Source: an uncultured Acidimicrobiaceae bacterium (GTDB lineage Bacteria; Actinomycetota; Acidimicrobiia; Spongiisociales; ZC4RG35). Taken from it: a stretch of DNA of 64,000 nt. Of the stretch, positions 6,858-48,161 are shown piece by piece; within the stretch, counting starts at the first letter, position 1, and each line of letters opens with the position of its first letter. The notes below the pieces were generated by a model that was not told the DNA's origin, searched no databases, and saw nothing but the letters and a program-made list of their open reading frames with translations. Both the position numbers and the translations under genes were made by a program. The stretch covers positions 3,070-67,069 of the forward strand of contig CAYVTP010000001.1 of NCBI GenBank assembly GCA_964454615.1. Reading direction: 5' to 3'.

Positions 6858-7535
6858 GTGGAGATGCACGAGATCGAGGCTGCGCTCACCAGGGCGGAAG
6901 AGAGTGTGGCTGCCGGCAGGGGTCTCGCCGGCACCGGATTCTGGAAGGCGGTCGGCGCACTCAAGAAGGACCCCGGGATGGTGGACCGTTACGCCCTGAG
7001 GGTCGCCGCCATCGACGAAGCCGCCTTTCGGTCCTGGGCGCTCCTGATCATCCCGATCGGCCTGGGCACCTTCCTGGCCGTGGTCGCCACCCTGGTCGGT
7101 CTGGGGTTGGTGGCCGCCGCCTACTGGCTGGAGGGGTGGTGGGCCATCGTGGCGTTCTTCGCCGGGGTGGGAGCACTCCTCGGGTCGACCCATGGCCTCG
7201 GCCACCTCGCGGTGGGGAGGGCGATGGGGATCCGCTTCACCGCCTGGTTCGTCTCTGAGGTCAAAAAGCCCCAGCCCGGCGTCAAACTGGACTACGCCAC
7301 CTACCTGCGAACGCCGCCGAGAGCCAGAGCCTGGATGCATGCCTCGGGGGCGATCGTCACCAAGGTGATCCCCTTCGCAATGATCGGGGCTGCCGTCGCA
7401 GCGGGGCTTCCCGGCTGGACGGTCTGGGCACTGGTGGCGCTGGGTGTCGTATTGGCCCTCTCGGACATCTTGTGGGCCGATACCTCCGACTGGGCCAAGG
7501 TCAAGAGGGAGATGTCGTTCGCTCAGAGCGAGTGA
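6858..7535 (+). CDS. hypothetical polytopic membrane protein
   Basis: 225 aa with 4-5 predicted TM helices; no recognisable family. Confidence 0.5.
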   Translation: MEMHEIEAALTRAEESVAAGRGLAGTGFWKAVGALKKDPGMVDRYALRVAAIDEAAFRSWALLIIPIGLGTFLAVVATLVGLGLVAAAYWLEGWWAIVAFFAGVGALLGSTHGLGHLAVGRAMGIRFTAWFVSEVKKPQPGVKLDYATYLRTPPRARAWMHASGAIVTKVIPFAMIGAAVAAGLPGWTVWALVALGVVLALSDILWADTSDWAKVKREMSFAQSE

Positions 7536-9172
7536 TCCGGCAGGCTGATCGACCCGTCGGTTCGGTGCATCTCCTCGTGCTCGGCGACCATCCGCTCGAA
7601 CACGTCGTTGTCGGCCACGTCTATGGCGATGATGTGGCGGTTCACCGGGCCGTCGGCCCGGTCGAAGGATCGTGCCCTGGCGATCAGAGCCGCAGCGGCG
7701 TCGTCGATGCGGGTGTGCTGGGCCAGGTGCTCCTCCCAGCTGTGGATCTCGAACAGCTCGGTGATCCTGTTCGGGTCCGAGATGTTCCTCATCAGCCGCC
7801 AGCGGTATGCCCCGGTACTCAATCGGACCAGCCGGAGGCTGTTCATCACCTTGGCGAACTCGATGAACTCGTCGGGCTCGATCACCCAGGTGTTGAGGAC
7901 TATCACGGGTCCTCCCTCCACTGCCGACTCCGTGTGGGGCTGTCCCGGCTCGCCGGTGAAACCCGGTGACTCGATGTCGTCGATCCGCGGTATCTGGAAC
8001 CTGGGGGCGAACAGACCGAGGACTATCGAGCCCGACGAGAAGATGATGAAGGTGGCCGCGGTGTCGATCTGGTCGGCAACCACTCCGGCAATGATCGAGC
8101 CGAGGGGAATGGTCCCCGCCCAGGCCAGCATGTAGAGAGACATCGCCCTACCCCGGATCCACTCCGGTGCCATCAGCTGTGCGGTGGCGTTCAGCGTCGA
8201 CATGGTGAGCAGCCAGAAGATGCCGCCGATGAACATGCCGATGCCCGCAACCCAGACGTTCGGGGCGAGACCGATCACGATGCCCACCACCCCGAACAGT
8301 GCCATGGTGGAGGGGACGGTGTTCCGGGTCGCCGACCTGAACAGCCGGGGCCTGATCACCGCCCCTGCCAGTGCCCCCGCACCCATCGCCCCCAGCATGA
8401 CGCCGAAGGCGCCGGCCTCCCCACCGAGACGCACGGTGTGCACCGGCAGGATCGCCTGGACGACGGCCGAGGTCATGGCGAACAGCGCAACCAGGGCAAG
8501 GAGGTTCCGAAAGGCCGGTGTGAAACGGGCGAACCGGATACCGGTCGATGCCGCCGACATGAGAGAGGTGTCCAGCCTGGCCCGTATCTTGAGATTGGGA
8601 GCGATGTAGAAGAGGACGGCGATCACCGACAGGTAGGAGACGGCGTTGATCCCGAAGCCGATGGCAGCCCCATAGGCCGCCACCAGGGCCCCGCCCAGCG
8701 CCGGGCCGATGGCCCGGGCCGTGTTGAAGGCGGCTGCCTGGAGGGCCACCGCCGACGCCAGGTGGTCCCGGGGGACCAGCTCGGGGAGGAGCGACTGCCA
8801 GGCCGGGAGGTTGAGAGAGGCACCGGTCCCCAGGACAAATCCGAGGGTCACCAGGAGCCACGGGGTCATCAGCCCGAGCTGGGACAGCAGGGCCATGGCC
8901 AGGGCGGACGAGGCCATGATCGCCTGTGCCACCCTCATCAGGTTGGCCCGGTTGAACATGTCGGCCAGCACGCCCGAAATGATCGAGAAGAAGAGCAGCG
9001 GCAGGAAGGCGGAGGCCACCATGAGTCCAACCCAGGTGCTCGACCCGGTGAGCTCGTACATCAGCCACGAGCCGGCCACCTGCTGGATGAACCCGCCCGT
9101 GGCCGAGAAGATGGTGGCGGCCCACAACGAGCGGAAGTGGGGGAACCGGAGTGGTGCTACGGCCGAGGTCAT
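7523..9172 (-). CDS. MFS transporter with a C-terminal ABM (antibiotic biosynthesis monooxygenase)-like domain
   Basis: 12-TM MFS core (EntS-like). ~120-aa C-terminal ferredoxin-like domain (PNRITELFEIHSWEEHLAQH). Confidence 0.75.
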   Translation of the reverse strand: MTSAVAPLRFPHFRSLWAATIFSATGGFIQQVAGSWLMYELTGSSTWVGLMVASAFLPLLFFSIISGVLADMFNRANLMRVAQAIMASSALAMALLSQLGLMTPWLLVTLGFVLGTGASLNLPAWQSLLPELVPRDHLASAVALQAAAFNTARAIGPALGGALVAAYGAAIGFGINAVSYLSVIAVLFYIAPNLKIRARLDTSLMSAASTGIRFARFTPAFRNLLALVALFAMTSAVVQAILPVHTVRLGGEAGAFGVMLGAMGAGALAGAVIRPRLFRSATRNTVPSTMALFGVVGIVIGLAPNVWVAGIGMFIGGIFWLLTMSTLNATAQLMAPEWIRGRAMSLYMLAWAGTIPLGSIIAGVVADQIDTAATFIIFSSGSIVLGLFAPRFQIPRIDDIESPGFTGEPGQPHTESAVEGGPVIVLNTWVIEPDEFIEFAKVMNSLRLVRLSTGAYRWRLMRNISDPNRITELFEIHSWEEHLAQHTRIDDAAAALIARARSFDRADGPVNRHIIAIDVADNDVFERMVAEHEEMHRTDGSISLPDHSL

Positions 9173-9178
9173 CAGGGC

Positions 9179-9466
9179 CTACTCCCGGGCGGCAAGGACG
9201 CTCTTGCGCTCGGTCGTGAATGCCCACCAGGGTTGTTGGGGGCCGCCCTCCATGTATCTGACGGCGGCGATGAAGACATCGAGGAGGCACGGGTCGTGGC
9301 GCGAGCCGGTGCGTAGGTTGATCTCGTCGTACATCTCGAAGGGGTCGCGACCTACCAGATCTCGAGGTCGACTGAACCCGAGGTACCTGAGGTTGGCGGC
9401 GATGGAGGGGCCGACGTTGGGAATGTCCTCCAACCGCTCGACCGTGCGGGAAGGGGCGGCAGGCAT
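9179..9466 (-). CDS. helix-hairpin-helix domain protein
   Basis: 95 aa; LEDIPNVGPSIAANLRYLGF is an HhH motif. Confidence 0.55.
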   Translation of the reverse strand: MPAAPSRTVERLEDIPNVGPSIAANLRYLGFSRPRDLVGRDPFEMYDEINLRTGSRHDPCLLDVFIAAVRYMEGGPQQPWWAFTTERKSVLAARE

Positions 9467-9505
9467 GAGGTTCGCAGCATAGATGGCGCGGACAGGACCG
9501 AGCCC

Positions 9506-9934
9506 CTACGACCCGAGGGTCGACTCGACTGCGGCGAGGTCGGCGAAGGTGGTGTCGCCCAAGGTCGAGCGGAGAGCCTCCTGGGCGGATGCCCAGGTCT
9601 CGTGGATGGCACAGCGATCGGCCCAGGCGCACACTCCGCCGCGGAGGATGCACTGATCCGACCTGATCGGACCATCGATCGACTCGATCAGCTCGAGGAG
9701 GGTGATCTCCGACGGCGGGATGGCCAGTCGGTAACCCCCGTCAGGGCCGGGTTCGGATCGGACCCTTCCCGTTCGGACCAGGGCCGCCAGGACCTGCGGG
9801 ATGTACTTCTCGGGTATGCCCATGGCCCCGGCGATCTCCTTGGCCTTCTGGCGGCCCGGGGATTCCCAATGTCGGGCCAGGTGGAGGACGGCGCGGACCG
9901 AGTAGTCAGCTCGCCGACCCAACTCCAATCGCAT
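9506..9934 (-). CDS. Rrf2-family transcriptional regulator (probable [Fe-S] sensor, NsrR/IscR-like)
   Basis: Start at MRLELGRRADYSVRAVLHLAR (cat at 9932-9934). wHTH plus three Cys with C-x6-C-x5-C spacing (CILRGGVCAWADRC). Adjacent to the nos genes. Confidence 0.8.
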   Translation of the reverse strand: MRLELGRRADYSVRAVLHLARHWESPGRQKAKEIAGAMGIPEKYIPQVLAALVRTGRVRSEPGPDGGYRLAIPPSEITLLELIESIDGPIRSDQCILRGGVCAWADRCAIHETWASAQEALRSTLGDTTFADLAAVESTLGS

Positions 9935-9959
9935 CCTCGTTTCCCTCTCGTTACCGGCC

Positions 9960-10787
9960 TCAGACGTCCCGACTTCGGAAGACCGCTGCGGCCGCCGCCA
10001 GTGGGGCGGCCAGCCACGCTGTCGTGGCCACGGCCAGGACAGCGGCTGCCTGGGCGACTCCGAAGCGGCTCTCCAGGAAGAACATGAATGGACCGAGGGC
10101 ATGGCCGTCGGTGGCCAGCAGCCCGAGGGTCCGGATGGCGGCCAACGGGTTCAGCAGTGTCATCCACAACAGGCCTGCCGGCCCGAGGTTCACCGGGGCG
10201 AGAGCGATCAGGATGACGTCGACGCCGAGGGCGATCAGGAACCACACGGCGACGGCGATCGCCGTCGCCTGGCCCCGCCCGTCTGCGAGCACCGAGATCA
10301 GGAGTCCGATCGCAACCCCGGCGGTTGCCGCGGCGAGGGTGACCGCGGTGGCCATCGCCAGTCCGGCCAGGTCGGACATGGTCATTGCCGGGGCCGTGAC
10401 CACCGCCACCAGCCCCAGACCGATGCAGATCGAGGCCCATACGGTGGCGGTGACCCCGAGGAAGCCTCCCCAGAGAATGGAGGACCGGGGGATCGGCTGA
10501 GCGGCCACCATGGCCAGTGTGCCCTGATCCCGGGCGCCGGCGACCACTCCCGAGCCGAGGAGGATCCCAAAGAGCGGGGGCACGAGCACGCCGATGGTGA
10601 GCAGGCCGTCGACGACGGCGCTGACACCTCTCAGGCCGAGGACGCTCATCGAACGCAGGTTGACCAGGGCGATCCCGACCGCCATGAGGGCATAGAGGGC
10701 GGCTGCCGCCAGGACCCACCGGCTTCGGGCGGCACCCCTCATTTCCCATACGGCGATGGTGAGGATGGGGCTCCGTGTCTTGGTCAT
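9960..10787 (-). CDS. nosY: NosY-like ABC-2 permease
   Basis: 275 aa, 6 TM. Start ATG (cat at 10785-10787) overlaps the NosF stop (ATGA). Context nosD-nosF-nosY. Confidence 0.75.
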   Translation of the reverse strand: MTKTRSPILTIAVWEMRGAARSRWVLAAAALYALMAVGIALVNLRSMSVLGLRGVSAVVDGLLTIGVLVPPLFGILLGSGVVAGARDQGTLAMVAAQPIPRSSILWGGFLGVTATVWASICIGLGLVAVVTAPAMTMSDLAGLAMATAVTLAAATAGVAIGLLISVLADGRGQATAIAVAVWFLIALGVDVILIALAPVNLGPAGLLWMTLLNPLAAIRTLGLLATDGHALGPFMFFLESRFGVAQAAAVLAVATTAWLAAPLAAAAAVFRSRDV

Positions 10788-11440
10788 GGCTTTGCCACTT
10801 TCAGCTTGGTGACCGTCGAACCGGGTCTTTCGACCAGCTTTCCCTCGGCCAGGCCGACCACGCGGTCGAAGGCCCGGGTCAGGTCGTCTGCCCGGGGGGT
10901 GGCGACCAGCACCGAGGCACCCTCTGCGGTGGCAACTACCAATCCCTGCTCCAGGGTTGCCCGACCCTCGTCGTCCAGGCTGGCCGCCGGCTCGTCGAGC
11001 AGTATCAGTGGCGGGCCGCCGAGCATCGAAACCGCCAGAGCCACTCGCTGCCGTTGCCCACCGGAGAGGACCCTCGCCGGGAGGCTGGTGTCGGGGAGGA
11101 ACTCCGGATCGAAGGGATGGGCCCCGGGGTCGACACCACGCAGTCGGGCGAAGAAGTCGATCACCTCGGCCACCGTCGGCCAGCCGGGGAAGCTCACCGA
11201 CTGGGGCAAGTACCCGATGCGGGAGCGGCCGGAGAGGGAGTCGAGCCCGTCGACGAGGATGGTTCCCTCGAACTTCGCCAGGCCGGCCACACATCTGAGG
11301 AAGGTGCTCTTGCCGCTCCCGTTGTGACCGGTGATGGCGGTGACCGTACCGGGCTCGAGATCGAGGTCGAGGTCGACCAGTACCTGTCGCGGGCCGAAGC
11401 TCTTGGAGACCCCTTGGGCGTGGAGTCGTGGTGGGGTCAT
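10784..11440 (-). CDS. nosF: NosF-like ABC transporter ATP-binding protein
   Basis: Walker A GHNGSGKST, signature LSGGQRQR, Walker B LILLDEP. Start MTPPRLHAQGV (cat at 11438-11440); the upstream in-frame extension is non-coding-like. Confidence 0.8.
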   Translation of the reverse strand: MTPPRLHAQGVSKSFGPRQVLVDLDLDLEPGTVTAITGHNGSGKSTFLRCVAGLAKFEGTILVDGLDSLSGRSRIGYLPQSVSFPGWPTVAEVIDFFARLRGVDPGAHPFDPEFLPDTSLPARVLSGGQRQRVALAVSMLGGPPLILLDEPAASLDDEGRATLEQGLVVATAEGASVLVATPRADDLTRAFDRVVGLAEGKLVERPGSTVTKLKVAKP

Positions 11441-13542
11441 GTCCGGACTCCTGTTCTGGGACGCCGCGAGAGCCTGAAGAAACTTCCCGCCGAGGTGACC
11501 AGCACCGCGAACCCGGCGATGCCCGCAGCAGCGGCTGCTGTGGGGTCTTGGGGGGCTTCGGAGATCCTGGGCGACACCGGCTCGGTGAGAGGCCAGTCGT
11601 CGGTGGCGACCGGCGACAGTGTGAGCCACCGACTCTCCATCGCTCCGATGATTCGCATCGAGGGGGAGTTGGCGAGCGAAGAGAGGATTGGCGAGCGAAT
11701 CAAGAGGCGGTTCACCGAGCTCGCCTCCGAGTGGGGGACTAGGCCCCGCCCGTTCTCCCCATAGCCCCTGTAGCTGCTCCAGTAGTTACCCCAACCTCTA
11801 TCCGACCATACGATCTGGGTCGCCACGCTGCGTCCCTGCTGTGAGACCTGCACGAGATTGTCGACGAAGCTGTTGGCGGTGAACACCACGGCTGCCGAAG
11901 GGAACACCACCACCCCGAACTGGTTGTCGGCCACGGTGTTGGCCACGACCATCATGGGGAGTGCGCCACCGGCGGGGCCGTCGAGGTGGAGCCCCACCCG
12001 ATTGTCGGTCACTCGGTTCTCCACGACCGTCGCATCGGTGACGTCCTTGAGGAGGATCCCGAACCCGGTCGATGATGACACATTGCCGGAGAGGGAGTTG
12101 CGGACCACCTCCACCTCCCCGCCGTACATGAGAACAGCCCCGGACAGGTTCCCTTCGAACCGGTTCTCGATCAGCATGAGCTGTCGGCTGTACATGGTGT
12201 GGACTGCGTAGCGGCTGTTGGCCACTTCGACGTTGTCGATCAAGACGGAGGAGGCGAATGAGGCGTAGATCCCATCGCGCACATCCTGGATACGGGTCCC
12301 CCGGACCAGGACCCAGTCGGACTCCCACAGCGAGATCCCGTCTCCGCGGCCCCCGACGAGGTGTGCATCGTGAGATCCGTCGGCGGCATGGCTCTCACCT
12401 CCGAAGGCGGCCTCCTCGCGACCGAGTATCAGGCTGTTCAGGATACGGGTCCCCTCGACATCGCCCACCGCGATGCCCATGTAGCTGTCGGCGACGATTA
12501 CGCCATCGATCTCCACACCATCGGCCGCCACCCTGATCCCGGCCGGTTGCCCTCCGGGCCCGTGCCCGCTGCCGGTGACATGGATCCCCTTGAGGGTGGT
12601 GCCCGGTGCGGTCACCGTGATCACGGTGCCTGACCGGCTACCCACGATCAGTGGCATCCCATCCCCTTCGATGGTGATTGAGCGATCGATGACCAAGTCC
12701 CCGCGGTATGACCCAGAGGGCAGAGTCAGAGTCCCGCCATCGGGCACACCTGCGATCAGAGATGCCAGATCGAGCAGTTCGTCGTGATCGACCATCCCGC
12801 CCGACGGGCTCGGGTGAGTTGGAGTTGGTCTTGTAGCGTCGCCGGAAGGGGTGAGGCTGCCCTGTCCGGAGTGGTCATGTCCGGAGTGGTCATGTCCATC
12901 GTGAGCCACTGCGGGCAGGGCGGTGGTCATCGTCAGGATCACCAGGAGGGCGAGGGCCGTCGTCGTCGACCTCAGGAGTTTGTCGGCCAGCTTGGGGCCG
13001 AAGCTGATGAGCGCGGCCGTGGCCAGGAGGGCGAGAGTGCCGGTCCCTGGCAGGGACCACGCCGTGAAGTTCCAGACCCGGGTGGGCCCGACCGCCCATG
13101 GTGTGAACCCTTCCATGCGGAAGGCGGCGCCAGGGTCGAGGTCGTGGCCGAACTGGTGCAGTCGGAGCTGGATGACGGCGAGGATGGAGAGAGGGAACAG
13201 CCACAGATAGAGTCTGGCCAGCCTGCCGATTACTCCCCTGACCATCAACCCGAGGATGACCGCCACGCCAGCCACTGCCAGCCCGAGGGGCCAGAGGGCA
13301 ATCTCCGGGAAGTCCTCGATGCTGAAGGGTCGCATCCCGATGTAGTGGTTGAGGCTGTCGATCTCGGCCAGGTCGCCTTCGGCCCGGTCACCGAACACCA
13401 CCAACTCGAGACCGTCCGGGTACTGAGGTGCGGCGAGGGCGGACCTCCAGAGCGGCAAGGCCATTGCGGAAGCGATCAGGAGGATGGCGACCAGGGCGAT
13501 GACCACCCTTGGCCAACCGGGAGTCCTATTGGAAGATCCCAC
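11437..13542 (-). CDS. nosD: NosD-like right-handed beta-helix protein fused to an N-terminal polytopic membrane domain with a His-rich segment
   Basis: Central/C-terminal part has parallel beta-helix (CASH/NosD) repeats (IHVTGSGHGPGGQPAGIRVAADGVEIDGVIVADSYMGIAVG..., repeated NxxxxN/VxxN turns). N-terminal ~230 aa has 5-6 TM helices followed by HDGHDHSGHDHSGQG. Likely GTG start at ~13542 (AAGGAG 10 nt upstream); the ORF tool started at a TTG at 13590. Confidence 0.7.
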   Translation of the reverse strand: MGSSNRTPGWPRVVIALVAILLIASAMALPLWRSALAAPQYPDGLELVVFGDRAEGDLAEIDSLNHYIGMRPFSIEDFPEIALWPLGLAVAGVAVILGLMVRGVIGRLARLYLWLFPLSILAVIQLRLHQFGHDLDPGAAFRMEGFTPWAVGPTRVWNFTAWSLPGTGTLALLATAALISFGPKLADKLLRSTTTALALLVILTMTTALPAVAHDGHDHSGHDHSGQGSLTPSGDATRPTPTHPSPSGGMVDHDELLDLASLIAGVPDGGTLTLPSGSYRGDLVIDRSITIEGDGMPLIVGSRSGTVITVTAPGTTLKGIHVTGSGHGPGGQPAGIRVAADGVEIDGVIVADSYMGIAVGDVEGTRILNSLILGREEAAFGGESHAADGSHDAHLVGGRGDGISLWESDWVLVRGTRIQDVRDGIYASFASSVLIDNVEVANSRYAVHTMYSRQLMLIENRFEGNLSGAVLMYGGEVEVVRNSLSGNVSSSTGFGILLKDVTDATVVENRVTDNRVGLHLDGPAGGALPMMVVANTVADNQFGVVVFPSAAVVFTANSFVDNLVQVSQQGRSVATQIVWSDRGWGNYWSSYRGYGENGRGLVPHSEASSVNRLLIRSPILSSLANSPSMRIIGAMESRWLTLSPVATDDWPLTEPVSPRISEAPQDPTAAAAAGIAGFAVLVTSAGSFFRLSRRPRTGVRT

Positions 13543-13593
13543 GGTCGTCACGCTCCTTTCACTCAGTATCTGGAGGCCCAACGCCCTCAACCT

Positions 13594-13971
13594 CTATTCG
13601 GAGATCAACGTTCCGAACATTCCGGACTCGTAGTGGCCCGGGATGGTGCAGATGAACTCGTAGGTCCCCGGCTGGAAGGTCACCGTTTCCCTCACCGTCT
13701 GCCCTGGGTCGGCGTACATGTCCAGGCCCACGGCTTCGATGGTGAAGTCGTGCTCGACGACCCCATGGTTCATGAAGACGAAGGTCACCGGGACCCCGGC
13801 AGGGACCTCGATGGTGCTGGGATCGAACTCGAACTCCGTTGCGTGGATTTCGATTTCGATCCCGCTCGGGGCTGTCGTGGGTGCGGTGGTCCCACCGCCT
13901 CCCCCGTCCCCGCCGCAGGCGGCGAGGACGAGGATGAGGGCGGTGATGGAGGCTGTGTATCGGTGTCGCAT
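13594..13971 (-). CDS. type-1 copper cupredoxin lipoprotein (plastocyanin/azurin-like)
   Basis: Lipobox LVLAACGG. Type-1 Cu ligands in HDF...FICTIPGHYESGM (His, Cys, His, Met). Confidence 0.7.
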   Translation of the reverse strand: MRHRYTASITALILVLAACGGDGGGGGTTAPTTAPSGIEIEIHATEFEFDPSTIEVPAGVPVTFVFMNHGVVEHDFTIEAVGLDMYADPGQTVRETVTFQPGTYEFICTIPGHYESGMFGTLISE

Positions 13972-14014
13972 TTTGTTCACGCTCGCTTGTCTAGTCGTTC
14001 TCTCTCGTGTGTTC

Positions 14015-16006
14015 TCAGGGCTCCACCAGGAGCCAGCCCTGCATCTCCAGGTGGAGGGCGGAGCAGAACTCGGTGCAGTAGAAGGCGAAGGCGCCACTGC
14101 GATTGGCGGTGAACTCGAGCGAGACCACTTCGCCCGGGTCGAGGCTCGCCTGGAGGTTGTAGGCCGGTATGGCGAACCCGTGGGTGGCATCGCGGGCGGT
14201 CTCGATGTTGGTGATGTGCATCACCACCTTGTCGCCTGCCCGCACCCTGATCACGTCAGGGGTGAAAGTGCTGCGCCGTGCAGTCATGTAGATGTGGGTC
14301 TCGTCTCCTACCTGCTCGATTCGCTCTTCGCCGGCCGCAATGGCCACGGCGGAAGGGCCCATGGTCAGGGGGTCGGTGCCCACCGGATACACCACCCACG
14401 GATCGGCCAGCTTGTCCAGTGCGATCATCTGCACGTAGTGGGGCTCGCCGAAGCCGATCGGCATGTCCTTGAGGATCCGCAACTCCGGCCCGTCGATGTC
14501 GATGAGCTGGAAGTTCTGCGGATGAAGGGTGCCTATGGCCGGGAACCGATCGACCGACCACTTGTTGAGGGCGACCAGGTACTTGCCGTGCGGGTTGACG
14601 GTGTCGCCGTGGGCGGTCACCAGGTGCCCGATATTGTAGTGCACCGGCACCTTGTCGACCAGCTTGAAGGCGTCAGCCTCGGCCACGCCGGCCTCCGGCC
14701 CCAGAGTCCAGCGGGCGACCGCGCTCTCCACGAACAATGACGTGTAGGCGTTGCCCCTGTTGTCGAACTGGGTGTGTAGCGGGCCTGCGCCAAGCTCCAC
14801 CTGGGCCTCGACGACTGCCTCGAACCGGAGGATCGGGACGCCGAACTGGTCGGTCCCTTCGAAGTCCTGGTTGGCGATGGCCTCCTTGATCCGATCGATG
14901 GTGTAGACGGTGGCGATGGGGTCGAGCTTGCCTGACACCACGATGTAGTTGCCGTCGGGGGAGACGTCGACACCGTGGGGGTTCCTCGGCTCGGCGGCGA
15001 AGTGGAGGAGACCCTCGTCGATCGCCGTCTGGAGCCGGATCATCCGCGCCCCGTTGATCATCTCGTACTTGCCTTCGGCGACCACCTGCTCTGCCAGCTC
15101 CCAGTTGATGATGTGGAGGTAGTCGAAGCTATTGGCGATGGCCCCCGACTCCAGTGGCGGGTTTCCTTCCCAGATCCCCCCGGTAGCCATCTCGGTGTTG
15201 TACGAGTTGATGAACGCCCAGCCGTGGCTTGCCAGCTTGCCGGCGTCGGCCAGGTCCTGGTTGTACGGGGGAAGCTCGATCTGGAAGCTCCTGTCCAGGT
15301 CGGCATGCCCGGTCTCGGGGTCGATGGCCACGAACATCGAAGCGCCCCGGTAGTACTCGGCGTATTCATCGAGGTCGGCGTATCCCCCCGGCGCCAGGTA
15401 CGGCGAAGGGGTCTTGGCCGCCACGTGGACGTACTCGGTGTTCGGTGTGGCGAACACCCCACCATGTGAGGTCTGCATGTTGGGGAGGTCGATGATCTGC
15501 TTGGTCTTGAAGTCCCGCAGGTCGACCATCGCCAGTCGGCCGTTGGCCCTGTCGTTGATGTAGAGGAAGCGGCCGTCGTAGTCGCCGTCGGTCTCCGAAA
15601 TGGCAGGGTGGTGTGTGTCCCCCCATGCCAGCGGGTTGTTCTGCATCGGGTCGACGCCCTCGTCGAGCACCTCCATGCTCCAGTCGGCCCCGAACCCGAA
15701 TCCGGACCATGCATCGGGGGCGAAGACCGGAATCGTCTTCAGCAGCCGCATCGACGGCACCCCGATCACATGCATCTGCCCGGAGTGGCCCCCGGAGGCG
15801 AAGATCAGGTACTCGTCGTGGTCGCCCGGGGCGACGAAGGTCTGAAGCGCGGCGGTGGCCTCGGCTCCGGTGAGCCCGCGTTGTGATGCGATGTCGGCGA
15901 GCTGTCCTCCGGCCGCCGTGCCGAATCCGACCCGGCCGCCCACCACCCCGATCACCAGACCCAGCACCAGTGCCAGGGCCAGGAAGATCCTGTTCTTACC
16001 GTTCAT
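14015..16006 (-). CDS. nosZ: nitrous-oxide reductase NosZ, Sec-dependent clade-II type
   Basis: CuA motif YCTEFCSALHLEMQGW with upstream HGF. CuZ beta-propeller His motifs (GDTHHP etc.). Signal peptide MNGKNRIFLALALVLG lacks a twin-Arg. Strong SD GGAGGTG upstream of the ATG (cat at 16004-16006). Confidence 0.9.
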   Translation of the reverse strand: MNGKNRIFLALALVLGLVIGVVGGRVGFGTAAGGQLADIASQRGLTGAEATAALQTFVAPGDHDEYLIFASGGHSGQMHVIGVPSMRLLKTIPVFAPDAWSGFGFGADWSMEVLDEGVDPMQNNPLAWGDTHHPAISETDGDYDGRFLYINDRANGRLAMVDLRDFKTKQIIDLPNMQTSHGGVFATPNTEYVHVAAKTPSPYLAPGGYADLDEYAEYYRGASMFVAIDPETGHADLDRSFQIELPPYNQDLADAGKLASHGWAFINSYNTEMATGGIWEGNPPLESGAIANSFDYLHIINWELAEQVVAEGKYEMINGARMIRLQTAIDEGLLHFAAEPRNPHGVDVSPDGNYIVVSGKLDPIATVYTIDRIKEAIANQDFEGTDQFGVPILRFEAVVEAQVELGAGPLHTQFDNRGNAYTSLFVESAVARWTLGPEAGVAEADAFKLVDKVPVHYNIGHLVTAHGDTVNPHGKYLVALNKWSVDRFPAIGTLHPQNFQLIDIDGPELRILKDMPIGFGEPHYVQMIALDKLADPWVVYPVGTDPLTMGPSAVAIAAGEERIEQVGDETHIYMTARRSTFTPDVIRVRAGDKVVMHITNIETARDATHGFAIPAYNLQASLDPGEVVSLEFTANRSGAFAFYCTEFCSALHLEMQGWLLVEP

Positions 16007-16049
16007 GTCGCCACCTCCACGGAGTCGGGTTCCGGCTCCAGCCAGAACC

Positions 16050-16066
16050 ATTAGTCAAGTACTAAT
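16050..16066. promoter_or_regulatory. AT-rich 6-5-6 palindrome ATTAGT-caagt-ACTAAT upstream of nosZ (candidate operator)
   Basis: The only AT-rich patch in the nosZ/DLH divergent intergenic region; perfect inverted repeat ~45-60 bp upstream of the nosZ ATG. Confidence 0.4.
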
Positions 16067-16163
16067 AGATACGGTCCACGTTTCCGGCCCGAAGCGGTAG
16101 GGTCGAAAGTCCCTATCGGGCCGGGTGTGTCGCCCACGCCAGGACCTCGCCTAAGTTGAAGGG

Positions 16164-16805
16164 GTGGCACGAGACCTCGCATACTTCGTCCAGGAGGTAA
16201 CCGGCCGCGGGGTTCTCATCCTCCACTCACTGTGGGGCCTGACCCCGTCGGTGAAGCAGCGTGCCGATGAATTGGCAAGCCGGGGATACACCGTTCTGGC
16301 ACCGGATCTCGGATTCGGGGCCCTGCCGCAGACCGAGACCGAAGCGCTGGACCTGCTCGCCTCGGCCAGCCCCGACCGGCTCGCCCGACTCGTTCTGTCG
16401 TCGGCCGCCCTTCTTCAGGAGAGAACATCCGGCGATCGGGTGGCCGCGGTCGGTTTCGGGATGGGTGGTTCCCTGGGGCTCTGGGCATCGGTTCGCCTCC
16501 CCGACACCATCGAGGCGGTGGTCTCCTTCTACGGGAGCCAGCAGATCGACTTCGCCGGCTCCCGCTCCTCCTACCTGGTGCACCTGGCCGAGACGGACGA
16601 GTTCATCGACGACGACGAGGCGGCGTTCATGGAGGCGACCATGGGTCTGGAGGGGTTGCCCGTGGAGATGGTCCGCTACCCGGGGTCCCGACACGGCTTC
16701 GCCGAGCCCGAAGCAGCAGGGTACGACGCGGAGGTGTTCTCCCTCGCCTGGGCGAGGACCCTCGAGTACCTCGAGATGTCTCTCGGTCAGGCTTCGGACA
16801 TCTGA
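16164..16805 (+). CDS. dienelactone hydrolase family protein (alpha/beta hydrolase)
   Basis: DLH fold with nucleophile-elbow-like GFGMGGS (Gly in place of the usual Cys) and a C-terminal His (GSRHGF). Non-ATG start. Confidence 0.6.
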   Translation: MARDLAYFVQEVTGRGVLILHSLWGLTPSVKQRADELASRGYTVLAPDLGFGALPQTETEALDLLASASPDRLARLVLSSAALLQERTSGDRVAAVGFGMGGSLGLWASVRLPDTIEAVVSFYGSQQIDFAGSRSSYLVHLAETDEFIDDDEAAFMEATMGLEGLPVEMVRYPGSRHGFAEPEAAGYDAEVFSLAWARTLEYLEMSLGQASDI

Positions 16806-17266
16806 GCCAGGTCGGCCTCGAGAGTTGCCCGCTCCTCGGGGTCGGTGATCTCTGCCAGGAGAGCCCTTGCCAGCTCGAGGTGCTCGGCGAAGGTGGCCAC
16901 GTCGTCGACGACCGCCGCCGCCCGGGCGATCGCCTCATGGGCGAACCCGGTGATGAACGGGCCCAGATCGTTGGCCATTGCCCGCTCCAGCGACCGCTCG
17001 CCGAAGCGGAGGGCCAGCTCCTCGTAGCCGAGCACCGCAGCCACCCGCGACACCTGCCAGTCGGCGATCGCCCTGTTACGAGGCTCGCCGACTGCGTACC
17101 AGTGGTGTCGCTGGGCGAAGGCGGCTGCGATCATCGCCTCCTCCTCGTCCCTGGTCGGCTCCGGGAGATCGAGCAGAGACCATGCCGTGTTGAAGGCGTG
17201 GGGAGCCATGAGCCTATGACTCGCTTCGAGTTCGCCGGACGAGAGGTGCCCTGATGGCTCGGTCAC
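16787..17266 (-). CDS. hypothetical protein
   Basis: 159 aa, acidic and helical; no family recognised. GTG start. Confidence 0.45.
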   Translation of the reverse strand: MTEPSGHLSSGELEASHRLMAPHAFNTAWSLLDLPEPTRDEEEAMIAAAFAQRHHWYAVGEPRNRAIADWQVSRVAAVLGYEELALRFGERSLERAMANDLGPFITGFAHEAIARAAAVVDDVATFAEHLELARALLAEITDPEERATLEADLAQMSEA

Positions 17267-17285: not shown

Positions 17286-18287
17286 ATGGCAGACGAAGTC
17301 GTGGTGGAGGTGGGCGGCGAACAGGTGCGGATAACCAGCCCCGACCGGGTCATCTTCCCCGACCGGGGGTGGACCAAGATCGATGTCGTCAACCACTTCG
17401 CCCTGGTCGCCGAAGGCGCCCTCCGGGCGGTTCAAGGCCGGCCCACCATGCTCAAGCGCTACATGAAAGACGTCACCGTCGAGCCCATCTATCAGAAGAG
17501 GGCCTCACCCAAGTCACCGTTCGACTCGGTCCAGGTGAGGTTCCCCTCACAGCGCCCGGGGAGGATGGTGGTGCCCCGCACGGAGGCCGACCTGGTCCGG
17601 CTCGCCCAGCTCGGCTGTCTCGACCTCCATCCGTGGCCGGTGCGGGCGGAGGACACCGACCACCCCGATGAGCTCCGCTTCGACTTCGACCCCACCCCCG
17701 GCGTGGGATTTGAGGAGGTGCGGGCGGCGGTGGCCGGGGCCAGGGACCTGCTCGACGAGTTGGGGCTGATCGGGTGGCCCAAGACCTCTGGCAGCAGGGG
17801 AATCCACGTCTACGTCCGGATCGAGCCGATCTGGGACTTCTTCCAGACCAGGCGGGCGGTGCTCGCCTTCGCCAGGGAGCTGGAGCGGCGGATGGAGGGT
17901 CTGGTGACGACCAAGTGGTGGAAGGAGGAGCGGCACGGCGTCTTCATCGACTACAACCAGAATGCTCGGGACAAGAGTGTGTCGGCTGCCTACGGCGTCA
18001 GGCCCACAGGCTACGTCTCGACTCCTTTCGCATGGGAGGAGCTGTCGACGGTCGCCGTCGAGGACTTCCCTTTGGGCTCGTTCGCCGAGCGATGGCGATC
18101 GGTGGGCGACCTCACCGAAGGCATCGATGATGTGGCGGGGCGCATCGACACCCTCCTCGAGTGGGTGGCTCGGGACGAGGCGAACGGTCAGGGAGACGCG
18201 CCCTGGCCACCGCACTATCCCAAGATGCCGGGGGAGCCTCCCAGGGTGCAGCCATCGAAGCAGAGGCGGCCGGATGAGGACTACTAG
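17286..18287 (+). CDS. NHEJ DNA polymerase/primase (LigD polymerase domain, PolDom)
   Basis: Motifs KTSGSRGIHVYVRI and HGVFIDYNQN characteristic of LigD-Pol. Confidence 0.8.
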   Translation: MADEVVVEVGGEQVRITSPDRVIFPDRGWTKIDVVNHFALVAEGALRAVQGRPTMLKRYMKDVTVEPIYQKRASPKSPFDSVQVRFPSQRPGRMVVPRTEADLVRLAQLGCLDLHPWPVRAEDTDHPDELRFDFDPTPGVGFEEVRAAVAGARDLLDELGLIGWPKTSGSRGIHVYVRIEPIWDFFQTRRAVLAFARELERRMEGLVTTKWWKEERHGVFIDYNQNARDKSVSAAYGVRPTGYVSTPFAWEELSTVAVEDFPLGSFAERWRSVGDLTEGIDDVAGRIDTLLEWVARDEANGQGDAPWPPHYPKMPGEPPRVQPSKQRRPDEDY

Positions 18288-19009
18288 ACGGCGTCGCGCT
18301 TGCTCAGGGCCCAGGTGAGGACGCCCCACCCAACGAGGATCACCGCCCCGATCTTGGCCAAGCCACCCCAAACCCCGGGGACCAGAGGGTCGAGATAGTC
18401 GTTGAGCACCCAGGTAGGCAGGTCTCCGGCGACACCCGCATACACCGAGACCGCGATCCTCCAGATGGACACCTCGGCGACGCCTCCCACCTCCTGGGCC
18501 ACGATCGACTCGACGATCACGACATAGGTGATACCGATGAGCAGGGCTCTCGGGGCCAGGTAGCCGAGTGGCACGAAGACGGAGGCGTACCCGATGGCAG
18601 CGATCGAGAAGAGTGCCAGGGCCGGGACCATCTCCTCGAAGCCGAAACCAGCAGCCATTCCACCGAGGACGGACGCTCCCCAAGCTCCGATAGCCAGGGC
18701 AAGAGCTGCCAGCATCCCGGCTCCGATGGACGCCGCGGCGAATGCGGCCCTCTCGATGGGTCTCATGTAGATGTAGGGGAGCGTCCCGGAATCGCGCTCG
18801 TCACGGAGAACTGCCACCGTCAGGATCAGGACGGCCAGGGAGACGACCATGCCACCGGCCACCACGATGCCCGGGTAGGTCGCCCGCGTCGGCCCGTCGA
18901 TGCTGGTGAGCCAGAGGATCACCCCGAGGACCGAGACCAGTGCCAGCAGGGAGACGACACGTCCCCTCCTCATCACCTGGCGGTAGAGGTGGGCCGCAAG
19001 AGTGATCAA
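18284..19009 (-). CDS. ABC-2 type transporter permease
   Basis: 241 aa, 6 TM. Overlaps the upstream ATPase gene by 4 bp. Confidence 0.6.
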   Translation of the reverse strand: MITLAAHLYRQVMRRGRVVSLLALVSVLGVILWLTSIDGPTRATYPGIVVAGGMVVSLAVLILTVAVLRDERDSGTLPYIYMRPIERAAFAAASIGAGMLAALALAIGAWGASVLGGMAAGFGFEEMVPALALFSIAAIGYASVFVPLGYLAPRALLIGITYVVIVESIVAQEVGGVAEVSIWRIAVSVYAGVAGDLPTWVLNDYLDPLVPGVWGGLAKIGAVILVGWGVLTWALSKRDAV

Positions 19010-19923
19010 CGTTTGGCCACCAGGTAACGGAACACCGACTCCAGCGACTCGTCGGCAGGCTGGACACTGGTCACCGAGAACCCGTGGGCGACCGCCAGGC
19101 GGGGTATGGCCATTGCGACGGCAGCGGCGTCGGCGGCTTCGATCCGCAGGCTCTCCCCATCGAGGTGGACGCCGACAACACCCTCGCTCTCGAGCAGGGC
19201 ACTGCCCAGGCGGCGGGCGTCGGGGGACTCGACATAGATCAATCGCGGTCGGTCGGTCATCGCCGCCCTGATGGTGCCGACGTTGCCCACCGCGGCCAGT
19301 CTTCCATCGACCATGGCAACCACCCGGTCGGCCATCCGCTCCACTTCGGCCAGGATGTGCGAGGAGACGATGAGGGTCCTTCCCGATCTCCCCAAGTCCT
19401 GGAACAGGCGGATCAGCTCCGCCCTCTGCACGGGGTCGGTGCCATTCAGAGGCTCGTCGAGGAGGAGCACCTGCGGGTCGGTGACCAGCGCAGCGGCCAC
19501 TTTGGCCCTCTGTCGCATGCCCTTGCTGAATCCGCCCAACTCCCTGTCGGCGGCGTTGGAGAGGTTCACCATCTCCAGAGCAGTCCTCGCCGAAGCCACC
19601 GGGTCATCGACCCGGGAGAGTCTGGCCATGGTGCTCACGAAGCCGACGGCAGAGACCCGCTGGTACACCGACTCCTCTTCGGGCACCAGGGACATCTCGC
19701 GGTAGATGTCGGTGTCCGCCCTCGGGTCCCGGCCGAGCACTTCCACCGTTCCCTGCGAGGGCCTCTGCAGTCCGGCGATCACTCGCATCAGGGTGGTCTT
19801 CCCCGCACCGTTGGGCCCGAGGAGCCCGGTCACGCCAGGTCCGAACCCGACCGACACCTCGCTGACGGCCACCTTGAGGCCAAACCACTTGGACAGCTCG
19901 GCGACGACGACCGTGTCGCTCAT
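19006..19923 (-). CDS. ABC transporter ATP-binding protein
   Basis: Walker A GPNGAGKTT, signature FSKGMRQR, Walker B LLLDEP. Start MSDTVVV (cat at 19921-19923). Confidence 0.8.
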   Translation of the reverse strand: MSDTVVVAELSKWFGLKVAVSEVSVGFGPGVTGLLGPNGAGKTTLMRVIAGLQRPSQGTVEVLGRDPRADTDIYREMSLVPEEESVYQRVSAVGFVSTMARLSRVDDPVASARTALEMVNLSNAADRELGGFSKGMRQRAKVAAALVTDPQVLLLDEPLNGTDPVQRAELIRLFQDLGRSGRTLIVSSHILAEVERMADRVVAMVDGRLAAVGNVGTIRAAMTDRPRLIYVESPDARRLGSALLESEGVVGVHLDGESLRIEAADAAAVAMAIPRLAVAHGFSVTSVQPADESLESVFRYLVAKR

Positions 19924-20801
19924 GCCAGTCTCCGGTAGCGCCAACGTACGAACGACACCGACAGGAGGAACACCGCGGCTATCACGATCACCGAGGCCTC
20001 CACCCCGAACCCGGCGATCTGCGCCGGATGGTCGACGGTCGGGTTGAAGAGCTCATCACGGATGATGCGAGGGTGCTGGTCGAGGTTGAGCAGTGACAGC
20101 CACCGGGCACCCGGGAAGTCGGCCCGGGCCACCTGGGCTGCGATCGCGCCGCCGGCGGTGATGATGCCCAGGAAGGCGGCGGCAGCTATCCCGGGACGCT
20201 TGATCACCGATGAGAGCCCGAAGACCAGGCCTCCGTGGAGGAGGGCGAAGGCCAGCGTCACCGCCGGCACCTTCCACATCACATCTAGGTTGTCGCCCAG
20301 ATAGGGAAGGAACCCGTCGCGGGCGATGAGGGCCAGCCCGAGATGGAGGATGACCTGGGGAACGATGTAGATGGCACCCACGATCGTGGCGAAGGCCCCG
20401 AACTTGGCCCCCAGATAGCCGTCGACCGTCAGCGGGCGTGAGAAGTAGATCGACAGGACACCTTTCTCCCGGTCCGGGATGAGCAGGGTCGGCCCGGCGA
20501 AGGCGATGAAGATCACCGCTATCCAGGAGTAGAAATCGAAGAGCTCCCCATAGGTGGGGACCCCCTGGCCGATGGCCTCTGCGATCTCGCCGATGGCCCA
20601 GGCGATGCCCACGAAGACCAGGGCCTGGACCATTGCCACCGTCATGAGGGACCAGGGAAAGATCTTGGTCCTGGCCTTCCGGCCGAGTCCCAGAAGACGG
20701 CGAATCCCCTCCCGGTACACGGCGCGCCGGGCCCCGGCGGCGCCTCTCCGGGGCCCGTCGTAGGATCGATAGCCCCGGTCGTAGATGACCTGGTCGGTCA
20801 T
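19920..20801 (-). CDS. ABC-2 type transporter permease
   Basis: 293 aa, multi-TM. Coupled to the flanking ATPase genes. Confidence 0.65.
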   Translation of the reverse strand: MTDQVIYDRGYRSYDGPRRGAAGARRAVYREGIRRLLGLGRKARTKIFPWSLMTVAMVQALVFVGIAWAIGEIAEAIGQGVPTYGELFDFYSWIAVIFIAFAGPTLLIPDREKGVLSIYFSRPLTVDGYLGAKFGAFATIVGAIYIVPQVILHLGLALIARDGFLPYLGDNLDVMWKVPAVTLAFALLHGGLVFGLSSVIKRPGIAAAAFLGIITAGGAIAAQVARADFPGARWLSLLNLDQHPRIIRDELFNPTVDHPAQIAGFGVEASVIVIAAVFLLSVSFVRWRYRRLA

Positions 20802-21739
20802 GGCCCGGGCGCCTGGTTGAGGAACAGGTCCTCGAGGGATGCCGAGCCCCGGATCATCCGGACCAGGCCGGCGTCGGCAGCCGCAGCTGCCTGGAGGACC
20901 GCCCTCTCCAGTTCCTGACCCGGTCCCACCACCAGCCTGACCCCGTCGACGGTGGCAGTGATCCCCTGCGACCGGAGCAGGTCGGCGACAGCGGCGGCAT
21001 CTCCGACCACCTCGACCGCCAGGTTGGCGTCCTTGTCGAACCCCTTGAGGGGGGCCGATCGGAGCAGACGGCCGGCGTCGAGCATGACCACCCAGTCGCA
21101 GGTCAGCTCGATGTCGGGGAGGACGTGAGAGCTGATGATCACGTCGATGTCGAAGGTGGCAAGACGCTTGATCAGGTCGAGCATCTGTTCCCGGCCCTCC
21201 GGGTCGAGGCCCGAGGCCGGCTCGTCGAGGAGGACCAGGTCAGGGTCGTGGACGATCGCCTGGGCCAGTTTCACCCTCTGGCGCATCCCTGTCGAGAAGT
21301 CTCCCAGGTACCTGAATCTCTCCTCCTCCAGTCCCACCAGGAAGAGAGTCTCCGAGGAGCGTCTCCGGGCGTCCTTTGGAGGGAGCCCGGCGAGCTGGGC
21401 GGTGAAGGACACGAAGTCGGCAGCGGTCTGGTCGACGGGGAGGCAGTCGCCCTCGGGCATGTAGCCCACCCGGGTCCTCACCTCCAGCGGTTCTTCCGAA
21501 GGATCATGTCCCAGGACCCTGACACCACCCTCGGTCTGGTGTAGCAGCCCGAGGAGGATCCGGAGAAGGGTCGTCTTGCCAGCGCCGTTGGCCCCAACAA
21601 GGCCGGTGACCCCCGGCGGCACACTCAGGGTCAGGTCGGTGAGTGCCTTGACATCGCCGTAGTCATGGGTCAGCCCGGAGACTTCGACGATGTTGGCTCG
21701 GTCCACGAACGGCACAGTCTTACAGGTCGGGGGAGCCAC
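20798..21739 (-). CDS. ABC transporter ATP-binding protein
   Basis: Walker A GANGAGKTT, signature FSTGMRQR, Walker B VLLDEP. Confidence 0.8.
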   Translation of the reverse strand: MAPPTCKTVPFVDRANIVEVSGLTHDYGDVKALTDLTLSVPPGVTGLVGANGAGKTTLLRILLGLLHQTEGGVRVLGHDPSEEPLEVRTRVGYMPEGDCLPVDQTAADFVSFTAQLAGLPPKDARRRSSETLFLVGLEEERFRYLGDFSTGMRQRVKLAQAIVHDPDLVLLDEPASGLDPEGREQMLDLIKRLATFDIDVIISSHVLPDIELTCDWVVMLDAGRLLRSAPLKGFDKDANLAVEVVGDAAAVADLLRSQGITATVDGVRLVVGPGQELERAVLQAAAAADAGLVRMIRGSASLEDLFLNQAPGP

Positions 21740-22721: not shown

Positions 22722-22788
22722 GGTGGGGATGGTCGGTGGGAAGGGGTGACTCACGAAGGGCGAGTCTACGACGGATACCCTGGGGCCC

Positions 22789-47990: not shown

Positions 47991-48161
47991 GCTGATTCCA
48001 TGGTCGGGCCCGCCCTGGGCTCTCTCGGACTCGCCGCCGGCCCTGCTCTCCTGTTCACTCACCTGTCCGGCATTCTCGCGCGCCTCCCGCCGGGGTGCGG
48101 CTACGCCAGCAGTGTCTGGACGTCGGCGACGCACCTGAGACGACGGGGATACACTCCAGGC

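Follow-up and report, generated by a model that had tools for sequence, protein, structure and literature searches.

How an actinobacterium might mature a nitrous oxide (N2O) reductase, and supply it with electrons, with few of the customary accessory proteins is the question raised by a nos gene cluster in a 64,000-nucleotide (64-kb) stretch of DNA, referred to here as the window, from an uncultured Acidimicrobiaceae bacterium. N2O reduction has rarely been documented in high-GC Gram-positive bacteria, a remark of the first-pass annotation of this DNA that is borne out by a 2014 survey, in which nosZ was present in 0 of 102 actinobacterial genomes carrying denitrification genes (PMC4250227). 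The searched literature on Acidimicrobiia or Actinobacteriota nosZ/nosD and on NosB fusions contained no description of such a cluster type. The findings described below make it likely that the locus is a functional clade II nos operon of an Acidimicrobiia-type actinobacterium, representing a haem-free, NosL-less subtype with the gene order nosZ-cupredoxin-nosBD-nosF-nosY-rrf2.

NosZ and the nos operon

The GC (guanine plus cytosine) content of the window, ~0.62-0.68, makes lists of open reading frames (ORFs) noisy, and real genes were distinguished from spurious ORFs by codon-position GC, which yielded 66 likely coding ORFs. The operon consists of six tightly packed genes on the minus strand (9506-16006), its boundaries having been set by gene spacing and conservation. 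The first of these, nosZ (14015-16006, minus strand), has a ribosome-binding site, GGAGGTGG, ahead of its ATG and encodes a Sec-type (clade II) nitrous oxide reductase of 663 amino acids (aa). The protein scored 763.9 bits against TIGR04246, the model for Sec-dependent NosZ (cut-off 625), while its scores against the Tat-type model TIGR04244 (431.6 bits) and the model for clade III, or L-NosZ (209.3), both fell below cut-off. Pfam assigned the domains PF18764, COX2 and Cupredoxin_1, and the architecture comprises an N-terminal hydrophobic signal or anchor, a seven-bladed propeller with the CuZ histidines and a C-terminal CuA cupredoxin domain. Alignment to structures 9f8x and 1qni located all seven CuZ histidines (H132, H133, H181, H344, H411, H461, H523) and all five CuA ligands (H609, C644, C648, H652, M655). 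The first-pass annotation had called both sites intact while allowing that a careful alignment might find ligands missing; all 12 are in place. The N-terminus, MNGKNRIFLALALVLGLVIGVVGG, has one hydrophobic segment (residues 6-24), and no twin-arginine (RR) motif is present in it or when translation is begun at an alternative upstream ATG, in keeping with the earlier call of a Sec-type protein without a Tat motif. In a neighbor-joining (NJ) tree rooted on the clade I enzyme 1qni, NosZ grouped in the clade II ingroup, so that its description as clade II-like also holds. Its closest named relatives (80-87% identity) belong to metagenome-assembled genomes (MAGs) of Acidimicrobiia or Acidimicrobiaceae, and a syntenic contig from JGI metagenome 3300075517 (locus L085 below) is 99% identical. 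Its sequence marks NosZ as a clade II enzyme of the Sec type with intact metal sites.

For comparison, 88 related loci (cited by L numbers) were assembled, 80 of them species-representative genome loci retrieved with the fused NosB-NosD protein described below as the query and 8 retrieved through NosZ homologues, and each was viewed over ±7-10 kb. The same module recurs, in genomic surroundings that differ, among members of the Acidimicrobiia, Nitriliruptoria (Egicoccus sp. AB-alg6-2) and Chloroflexota, and two phyla thus share its architecture at NosZ identities of 65-87%. In these cupredoxin-type loci, a cupredoxin gene lies between nosZ and nosB, nosL is lacking and NosB is fused to NosD, except in L016. 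The group includes Acidimicrobiia (L001, L004, L019, L085, L087), Nitriliruptoria-type loci (L003, L084, which is Egicoccus sp. AB-alg6-2, and L088) and Chloroflexota of CSP1-4, Limnocylindrales and other affiliations (L005-L007, L010-L012), with L008 and L016 also belonging to it. The NosL-less loci, including L009 and L086, form one NosZ subclade in the NJ tree. Dozens of MAGs in public databases, as well as the Egicoccus isolate genome, already contain the same module, of which automatic annotation recognizes only NosZ and NosD.

At the nosBD/nosF and nosF/nosY junctions, the start of one gene overlaps the stop of the previous one (ATGA), which implies translational coupling at both. Ratios of nonsynonymous to synonymous substitution rates (dN/dS) relative to L019, L004 and L001 were 0.10-0.43 for all six genes, values that are rough because dS is near saturation, with NosZ the most constrained (0.10-0.14 against the three relatives). 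As judged from these ratios, all six operon genes are under purifying selection. That the cluster is instead a decaying or non-functional remnant, unable to mature NosZ without NosL and NosR, is extremely unlikely: canonical helpers are indeed missing, and the searched literature holds no cultured actinobacterium with demonstrated NosZ activity, but the ORFs and metal ligands are intact, genes are translationally coupled, dN/dS is low and the architecture has been kept across two phyla in spite of considerable NosZ divergence. The nos operon is genuine and conserved, and it probably functions.

Two further co-directional genes, encoding a Cdd1/helix-hairpin-helix (HhH) protein (9179-9466, PF11731) and an MFS_3 transporter (7523-9172), lie downstream. 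The first-pass annotation had counted them in a cluster of eight co-directional genes, of which the six minus-strand genes stand; the HhH and MFS genes lie outside 9506-16006, are not kept beside the module in the loci of relatives and were rejected as members.

The NosB-NosD fusion protein, NosF and NosY

The third gene, nosBD (11437-13590, minus strand), is a single in-frame ORF of 717 aa, with a TTG start that is uncertain by ~15 codons and no stop codons between its NosB and NosD parts. Its product comprises, in order, NosB with four transmembrane (TM) helices (residues ~25-205), a fifth helix (TM5), a His-rich linker, the NosD beta-helix and a C-terminal TM helix. This ORF had been labelled nosD, with the comment that a separate nosB-like gene was lacking; NosB is not missing, however, but forms the N-terminal domain of the same ORF (12976-13518, minus strand), with four TM helices and two outward-facing loops. 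The domain matched NosB of Sulfurimonas denitrificans by hhalign (probability 99.6%, E 1.5e-23) and BLASTP (E 2e-17), reference NosB sequences having been taken from the supplement of PMC11409646. Its loops carry PQYPDGL, LNHYIGM (80-86), FGHD (147-150) and FTP, among which LNHYIGM is identical to one of the published NosB signature motifs and FGHD is a variant of the other, YGHN (PMC9697520). The N-terminal ~205 residues have 247 homologues, which are mostly stand-alone four-helix membrane proteins of ~200 aa, although some are fused to a NosL domain (P0066, P0085, P0089).

TM5 and the linker are encoded at 12862-12966 (minus strand). By hydropathy, TM5 (residues 209-229) ends in ...ALPAVA and is followed directly by the linker, HDGHDHSGHDHS (residues 230-241), and a hydrophobic segment is kept at the position of TM5 in every fused homologue. 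With the N-terminus of NosB inside the cell, five helices would place NosD outside, where it must act. TM5 resembles a signal peptide and the junction of AVA with HD resembles a signal-peptidase site, so that NosB and NosD may be separated by cleavage once the protein is in the membrane. An AlphaFold2 (AF2) model of NosBD had a mean predicted local distance difference test (pLDDT) score of 87, with confidence in both domains; the parts of low confidence were the N-terminus and two stretches predicted to be disordered, the linker at 223-249 (pLDDT <50) and a loop at 399-409.

The NosD beta-helix domain (11596-12765, minus strand; residues ~276-665) matched PF05048 at 107.5 bits (cut-off 23.6). 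Its only solved relative by sequence is NosD of Pseudomonas stutzeri (7o0y_A, E 3e-23), and Foldseek gave target-normalised TM-scores of 0.75-0.79 against 7o0y_A and 7osf_A. The idea that the C-terminal TM helix of NosD is an adaptation to a single membrane was rejected, as this helix is also found in many NosL-containing loci from diderm phyla. The two genes that follow had been named nosF and nosY, and their PF00005, PF12679 and 7o0y matches agree. NosF (10784-11440, minus strand; 218 aa) is an ABC ATPase that matched PF00005 and, along with numerous generic ABC proteins, NosF of P. stutzeri (7o0y_B, E 8e-22); by sequence alone it is not separable from generic ABC ATPases, and the position of nosF is constant across all related loci. 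NosY (9960-10787, minus strand; 275 aa) is an ABC-2 type six-helix permease with six hydrophobic segments and a match to PF12679, and its sole significant solved relative, over the full length, is NosY of the same complex (7o0y_D, E 1.1e-20).

NosB stands apart from NosD in 51 of 85 loci (49 in which NosB, NosD, NosF and NosY are all separate, together with L021 and L047). The remaining loci encode fusions of NosB with NosD alone (24 loci), with NosD-NosF (7) or with NosD-NosF-NosY (3). Fused NosBD proteins also account for ~80 clusters in a collection of 5.8 billion proteins, where no label beyond NosD or 'nitrous oxidase accessory protein' is attached to them. By the Rosetta-stone argument, repeated fusions of NosB to NosD, NosDF, NosDFY and NosL link it to maturation. 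AF2 predicts with confidence that NosB folds into a bundle of four helices and a beta sheet that faces outward, a fold for which the only structural matches were to claudin, TARP or DUOXA1-like proteins and none was to a cofactor fold. Its invariant residues (P46, Q56-P58, N81-Y83, M86, G148, G168) are situated in outward-facing loops, outside the membrane, and no haem, Fe-S or flavin motif was found in NosB. Because of these outward-facing invariant residues, the lack of a cofactor motif and the recurrent fusions, NosB would be a scaffold rather than a redox enzyme. The contrary proposal, in which NosB is a quinol-linked electron donor to NosZ and not a part of the maturation apparatus, draws on the findings that deletion of nosB in Wolinella succinogenes abolishes N2O respiration and that NosB is fused to a cytochrome c (NosC2) in Campylobacterota, and an electron-transport role is what the literature assumes, with copper management as the alternative (PMC9697520; PMC11409646). 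Given a claudin-like tetraspan fold devoid of cofactor motifs and fusion partners that extend from NosD, NosD-F and NosD-F-Y to NosL, such a role is considered very unlikely.

In three Armatimonadota-type loci, NosB, NosD, NosF and NosY are encoded by one stop-free ORF of ~1,300 aa (L053, 1728-5636; L058, 9818-13822; L068, 9968-13873), and these ORFs would be a single-polypeptide NosBDFY machine.

NosL and the histidine-bearing loop of NosD

NosL was sought with a hidden Markov model (HMM) that was seeded on three NosL domains and iterated over all fetched loci. It was found in 65 loci, whereas no NosL of the PF05573 type was detected in the 64-kb window or within ±7-10 kb in the 19 loci of the NosL-less clade, so that the lack of a local nosL reported in the first-pass annotation is confirmed. 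Outside this clade, nosL is kept within the cluster in 65 of 67 loci.

Absence of NosL is tracked by a His-bearing loop insertion in NosD, which is present in 19 of 19 loci of the NosL-less clade and in 0 of 67 others. The NosD segment that precedes the conserved RGDGIxxW turn consists of 39-85 residues with 1-14 His in the clade, and of 25-26 residues with a mean of 0.42 His elsewhere, including the two nosL-bearing sister loci. Within the clade, the loop carries a conserved [DE]xxH[AV] motif, and H401 is conserved in at least 90% of 76 fused NosBD proteins. In the window, the loop, GGESHAADGSHDAH (residues 397-410; 12361-12402, minus strand), lies just before the turn, which here reads RGDGISLW, and maps to ~residues 143-166 of P. 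stutzeri NosD. NosL is needed for N2O reductase (N2OR) activity in Paracoccus denitrificans under copper limitation (PMC6530538), and Cu(I) from NosL has been proposed to pass to His on a partner protein (PMC8457098). We infer that the His loop, in addition to the His-rich linker where that is present, may capture Cu(I) in place of NosL.

It is also conceivable that the cluster is not truly minimal, with NosL and perhaps cytochromes or other helpers being encoded elsewhere in the genome and the His loop having nothing to do with copper supply. Only 64 kb of this genome is visible, linkage of NosL to nosZ is not obligatory in principle, and some loops of the clade have no more than one or two histidines. 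However, the near-universal retention of nosL in the cluster outside the clade, its absence from all 19 clade loci over the distances examined and the exceptionless association of the loop insertion with NosL absence, which extends to the comparison with the two sister loci, make this unlikely.

The cupredoxin and electron supply

The second gene of the operon (13594-13971, minus strand) encodes a 125-aa lipoprotein of the type-1 (blue) copper protein family with PF13473 and PF00127 domains. Its LAAC lipobox and its His/Cys/His/Met ligands (EHD ... C-x4-H-x4-M) are invariant in 17 of 17 related loci, and its closest solved relatives are 4hcf, auracyanin A and rusticyanin. Of the 69 other loci, 55 have an ORF with a CXXCH motif no more than 3 kb away from the cluster, whereas the 14 cupredoxin-type loci have none, a single ORF of 59 aa in L016 excepted. 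Among the 66 likely coding ORFs of the window, there was no CXXCH motif and no CxxCxxCxxxC or CX3CP motif of the NosR/NosG/NosH type, the scanned ORFs gave no Pfam hit of that type (FMN-bind and others), and the ORFs outside the cluster gave none for nir, nor or nar. The first-pass annotation had likewise reported neither nosR nor cytochrome c in the cluster, and had regarded the accessory set as unusually reduced; NosL, NosR and cytochromes are indeed lacking locally, but the reduction involves substitution and not just loss, the cupredoxin taking the place that cytochrome c genes have in relatives and the His loop accompanying the absence of NosL, and it characterizes a conserved subtype. 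The cupredoxin is proposed to be a membrane-tethered electron donor to CuA, used in place of a cluster-linked cytochrome c.

In the sister loci L013 and L074, nosL is found between nosZ and the fused nosBD (nosL ORFs 1322-2515 and 8625-9257), and the presence of the cupredoxin gene in this same slot suggests gene replacement at one position. This coincidence might be taken to mean that the cupredoxin is a copper chaperone that replaced NosL, while NosZ receives its electrons straight from a membrane cytochrome, for example QcrC of actinobacteria, and a weak, sub-cut-off match of its N-terminal part to CopI copper-resistance cupredoxins points the same way, as does the fact that the modules of L009 and L086, if they work at all, do so without an adjacent cupredoxin. 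Yet the His/Cys/His/Met set, invariant in this family, is that of a classical type-1 site for electron transfer, in which copper is bound tightly, and not a labile chaperone site. Auracyanin and rusticyanin, among the closest solved relatives, are electron carriers, and where the cupredoxin is present, cytochrome c genes linked to the cluster have been lost. A chaperone function is thus distinctly unlikely, and the role favored here for the cupredoxin is that of electron donor.

Candidate regulatory elements

A dienelactone-hydrolase family gene (16164-16805, plus strand; conserved in L085) is divergent from nosZ, which makes the nosZ regulatory region a shared divergent intergenic region of 157 bp. 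It contains a DosR/DevR-like box, GGGACTTTCGACCC (16100-16113, minus strand), ~107 nt upstream of the nosZ ATG. The box agrees with the mycobacterial DosR consensus, TTSGGGACTWWAGTCCCSAA (PMC2275270), at 14 of 20 positions, having in common with it the GGGACTTT half-site and, from a second half-site that is otherwise degenerate, the ...CCC. The motif GGGACTTTCG(G/A)CCC is common to nosZ-upstream regions, at ~-105 to -155, of relatives that have only 67-87% NosZ identity. The pattern GGGACYTTNGNCCC has one exact match in the window (16100-16113) and seven in the window and 88 loci together, six of which lie no more than ~130 nt ahead of nosZ. When as many as two mismatches were allowed, 9 hits were obtained in 25 kb of nosZ-upstream DNA versus 17 in 1.47 Mb elsewhere, a density ~31-fold higher. 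This strong enrichment in the clade suggests the box as a candidate site for a hypoxia- or nitric oxide (NO)-responsive response regulator of the DosR type.

Closer to nosZ, at -60 to -44 from its ATG, ATTAGT-N5-ACTAAT (16050-16066, minus strand) is an AT-rich palindrome with a perfect 6-bp inverted repeat. Related palindromes of the form T(A/T)AGT-N5-ACT(A/T)A occupy the same position in L004, L019 and L088, and ACTAATGGTT is conserved in L001 and L003. The palindrome is a candidate operator that overlaps the probable core promoter, and may be the site of the regulator encoded by the last gene of the operon, rrf2 (9506-9934, minus strand). Its product, an Rrf2-family protein of 142 aa (PF02082, 107 bits; TIGR00738), has a putative Fe-S ligand set, C95-x6-C102-x5-C108-x2-H111, with the spacing typical of Fe-S Rrf2 regulators, and its closest solved relatives are 4cic, RsrR (6hsd) and IscR. 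An Rrf2 gene was present in 31 of 86 fetched nos loci and adjoins the module in L001, L019, L084 and L088. An Rfam scan of the whole window at the gathering threshold returned zero hits, which indicates that no riboswitch or RNA element is involved.

Some further observations concern these regulators. In the actinomycetotal locus L088 (1857-6827), an Rrf2 gene, the cupredoxin gene and a second Rrf2 gene precede the module, which adjoins genes of the other strand for subunit I of a haem-copper oxidase (COX1) and a UbiA-family protein. Two nitroreductase-family genes are present on the minus strand of the window (31944-32459 and 39927-40424), and the mycobacterial nitroreductase family includes members of the DosR regulon; the sole DosR-like near-match in their vicinity (38330-38343) falls within an ABC-2 permease gene and does not precede either gene. 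In the actinomycetotal locus L086 (9130-12757), a cupredoxin gene is not found beside the module, in which nosF and nosY are fused (515 aa) and follow nosZ and nosBD, and CBS-domain genes and a DosS-like kinase (GAF-GAF-HisKA_3) lie downstream.

Proposed working of the operon

These elements can be assembled into a provisional scheme. Transcription would start ~40-50 nt upstream of nosZ, being activated through the DosR-like box at -107 by hypoxia/NO two-component signalling and gated at ATTAGT-N5-ACTAAT by the operon's own Fe-S Rrf2 protein. Actinomycetota and Chloroflexota lineages are generally regarded as single-membrane bacteria, and apo-NosZ, predicted to be exported unfolded via Sec, would stay at the outer face of this membrane. 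There, the machine formed by NosB-NosD, NosF and NosY, which is related by clear homology to known NosDFY proteins, would build CuZ and CuA, with NosB acting as a cofactor-less tetraspan scaffold and a physical part of the machine. Without NosL, Cu(I) may be taken up by the flexible His segments of NosBD (loop 397-410, linker 230-241). Electrons would pass from the quinol pool to a quinol:cytochrome c/cupredoxin oxidoreductase encoded elsewhere, then to the tethered cupredoxin and on to CuA.

Several points weigh against this account, either in its general outline or in its details. The 80 loci were chosen by their similarity to the fused query and the NJ tree is a simple distance-based one, while the presence of NosL, cytochromes and nir/nor was judged on 64 kb here and on ±7-10 kb in relatives. 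The searched literature contained no published N2O phenotype for any carrier of the module. NosD scored below the curated TIGR04247 cut-off (267.1 versus 300 bits), a shortfall that is likely due to the loop insertion and to sequence divergence. The NosD loops of L009, L016, L086 and L001 have just one or two His, and the His-rich linker, which is present in the window, L003, L004, L019 and L084, is missing in L001 and in Chloroflexota; it was thus rejected as a clade-wide feature, and the NosD loop is the universal one. In two clade members, L009 and L086, the cupredoxin is absent beside the module, where the electron donor may be encoded elsewhere or may differ. A scan of 7300-16300 for consensus promoters and terminators found nothing, and no DosR-type regulator or DosS-type kinase is encoded in the window; GAF-GAF histidine kinases are found near the module in L003 and L086.

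Other genes in the window

By Pfam, the rest of the window contains only housekeeping genes, including those for transketolase, Ada/MGMT, an ECF sigma factor, a LigD primase-polymerase, DNA ligase, ABC-2 transporters, TerC, urocanase, ClpP, a chromate transporter and a class II ribonucleotide reductase. Next to the dienelactone-hydrolase gene, a 159-aa ORF (16787-17266, minus strand) without Pfam or NCBIfam hits is conserved in L085. In the adjoining region (17286-22835), the genes for the LigD primase-polymerase (17286-18287, plus strand) and ATP-dependent DNA ligase (21720-22835, minus strand) flank two ABC ATPase/ABC-2 permease pairs, an arrangement also seen in L085. A 1,050-aa LAL-type regulator with AAA, MalT-like TPR and LuxR/GerE domains is encoded at 47586-50738 (plus strand). 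The region 50806-54900, which includes a gene for an SCO4226-like nickel-responsive protein, has a weaker codon-position GC signal, and the ORFs 51450-52490 and 53032-53844 had no Pfam hits. The class II (B12-dependent) ribonucleotide reductase (56113-60900, minus strand; 1,595 aa) is split by an intein with a LAGLIDADG homing endonuclease, and Rfam detected no cobalamin riboswitch.

Significance and comparison with known systems

No biological sink for N2O other than NosZ is known, and inventories of N2O consumers and of their copper and oxygen regimes hinge on the recognition of functional clusters. The phyla concerned here are not usually counted among N2O reducers, yet abundant soil and sediment lineages (Acidimicrobiia, Nitriliruptoria and Limnocylindria-type Chloroflexota) carry this conserved and selected nos operon, and the clade may act as a sink for this greenhouse gas that has so far been missed. 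The operon would be counted as incomplete by annotation pipelines that look for nosL, or for nosB as a gene of its own, and the fused protein is annotated only as NosD. The one-to-one trade between NosL and the His loop points to chaperone-independent copper entry and bears on N2O reduction under copper limitation. Furthermore, the repeated fusions of NosB argue for its place in a copper-maturation machine, where the literature is split between electron transport and copper handling. The presence of the module in an isolate genome, that of Egicoccus sp. AB-alg6-2, makes experiments feasible.

More tentatively, and as a possibility that we would hold to be short of probable, the clade of Actinomycetota and Chloroflexota may possess an all-copper N2O module, which lacks NosL and any haem protein of its own, captures Cu(I) through the His loops of NosD, uses NosB as a structural subunit and a lipid-anchored cupredoxin as the donor, and is controlled by a DosR-type switch. 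If this is true, identification of NosB as a subunit of a NosB-D-F-Y complex would settle its long-debated role.

The operon shares features with each of the nos systems already described. In clade I nosRZDFYL clusters, as in P. stutzeri and P. denitrificans, the NosZ metal sites, NosD beta-helix, NosY and NosF are homologous to those of the window (NosDFY(L) structures 7o0y and 7osf), but clade I differs in having Tat export, the NosR/NosX electron and maintenance module, a separate NosL chaperone and soluble cytochrome c or pseudoazurin donors; clade I lacks NosB, and P. stutzeri NosD lacks the loop insertion (~residues 143-166). The clade II clusters of W. succinogenes and other Campylobacterota (nosZ-B-D-G-C1-C2-H-F-Y-L) have in common with the window a Sec-type NosZ, NosDFY maturation genes, the absence of NosR/NosX, a NosB encoded downstream of nosZ and the LNHYIGM and YGH motifs. 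In contrast, the window has no NosG/NosH Fe-S module, NosC1/C2, NosL or cytochrome c domain in NosZ, its NosB is fused to NosD rather than to NosC2, and its cluster encodes a type-1 cupredoxin. Closer in layout are the clade II clusters of Bacteroidota and Gemmatimonadota (Dyadobacter fermentans, Flavobacterium azooxidireducens), in which a compact nosZ-B-(L)-D-F-Y arrangement and a fusion of NosB to a maturation component are likewise found (PMC9697520). There, however, the partner of NosB is NosL, while in the window it is a His-loop NosD and NosL is lacking; moreover, these phyla are diderm, and most of the comparable loci examined keep cytochrome c genes nearby.

The auracyanins of Chloroflexus are lipid-anchored type-1 cupredoxins that serve as respiratory electron shuttles in place of soluble cytochrome c, as is proposed for the cupredoxin of the window, whose gene, in contrast, forms part of the nos operon. 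Halocyanin-type donors, again lipid-anchored cupredoxins instead of soluble cytochrome c, serve haloarchaeal denitrification. With mycobacterial DosR (DevR) boxes, the upstream element shares a half-site and the terminal CCC, and control by hypoxia and NO would be physiologically sensible, although the second half-site in the window is degenerate and there is no DosR/DosS gene in it. Because every protein of the operon belongs to a known nos family, the system is not categorically new. What makes it a distinct and apparently undescribed variant of clade II is the combination of NosB fused to NosD, a NosD that has a His loop and no accompanying NosL, a cupredoxin in place of cytochromes and a DosR-like box.

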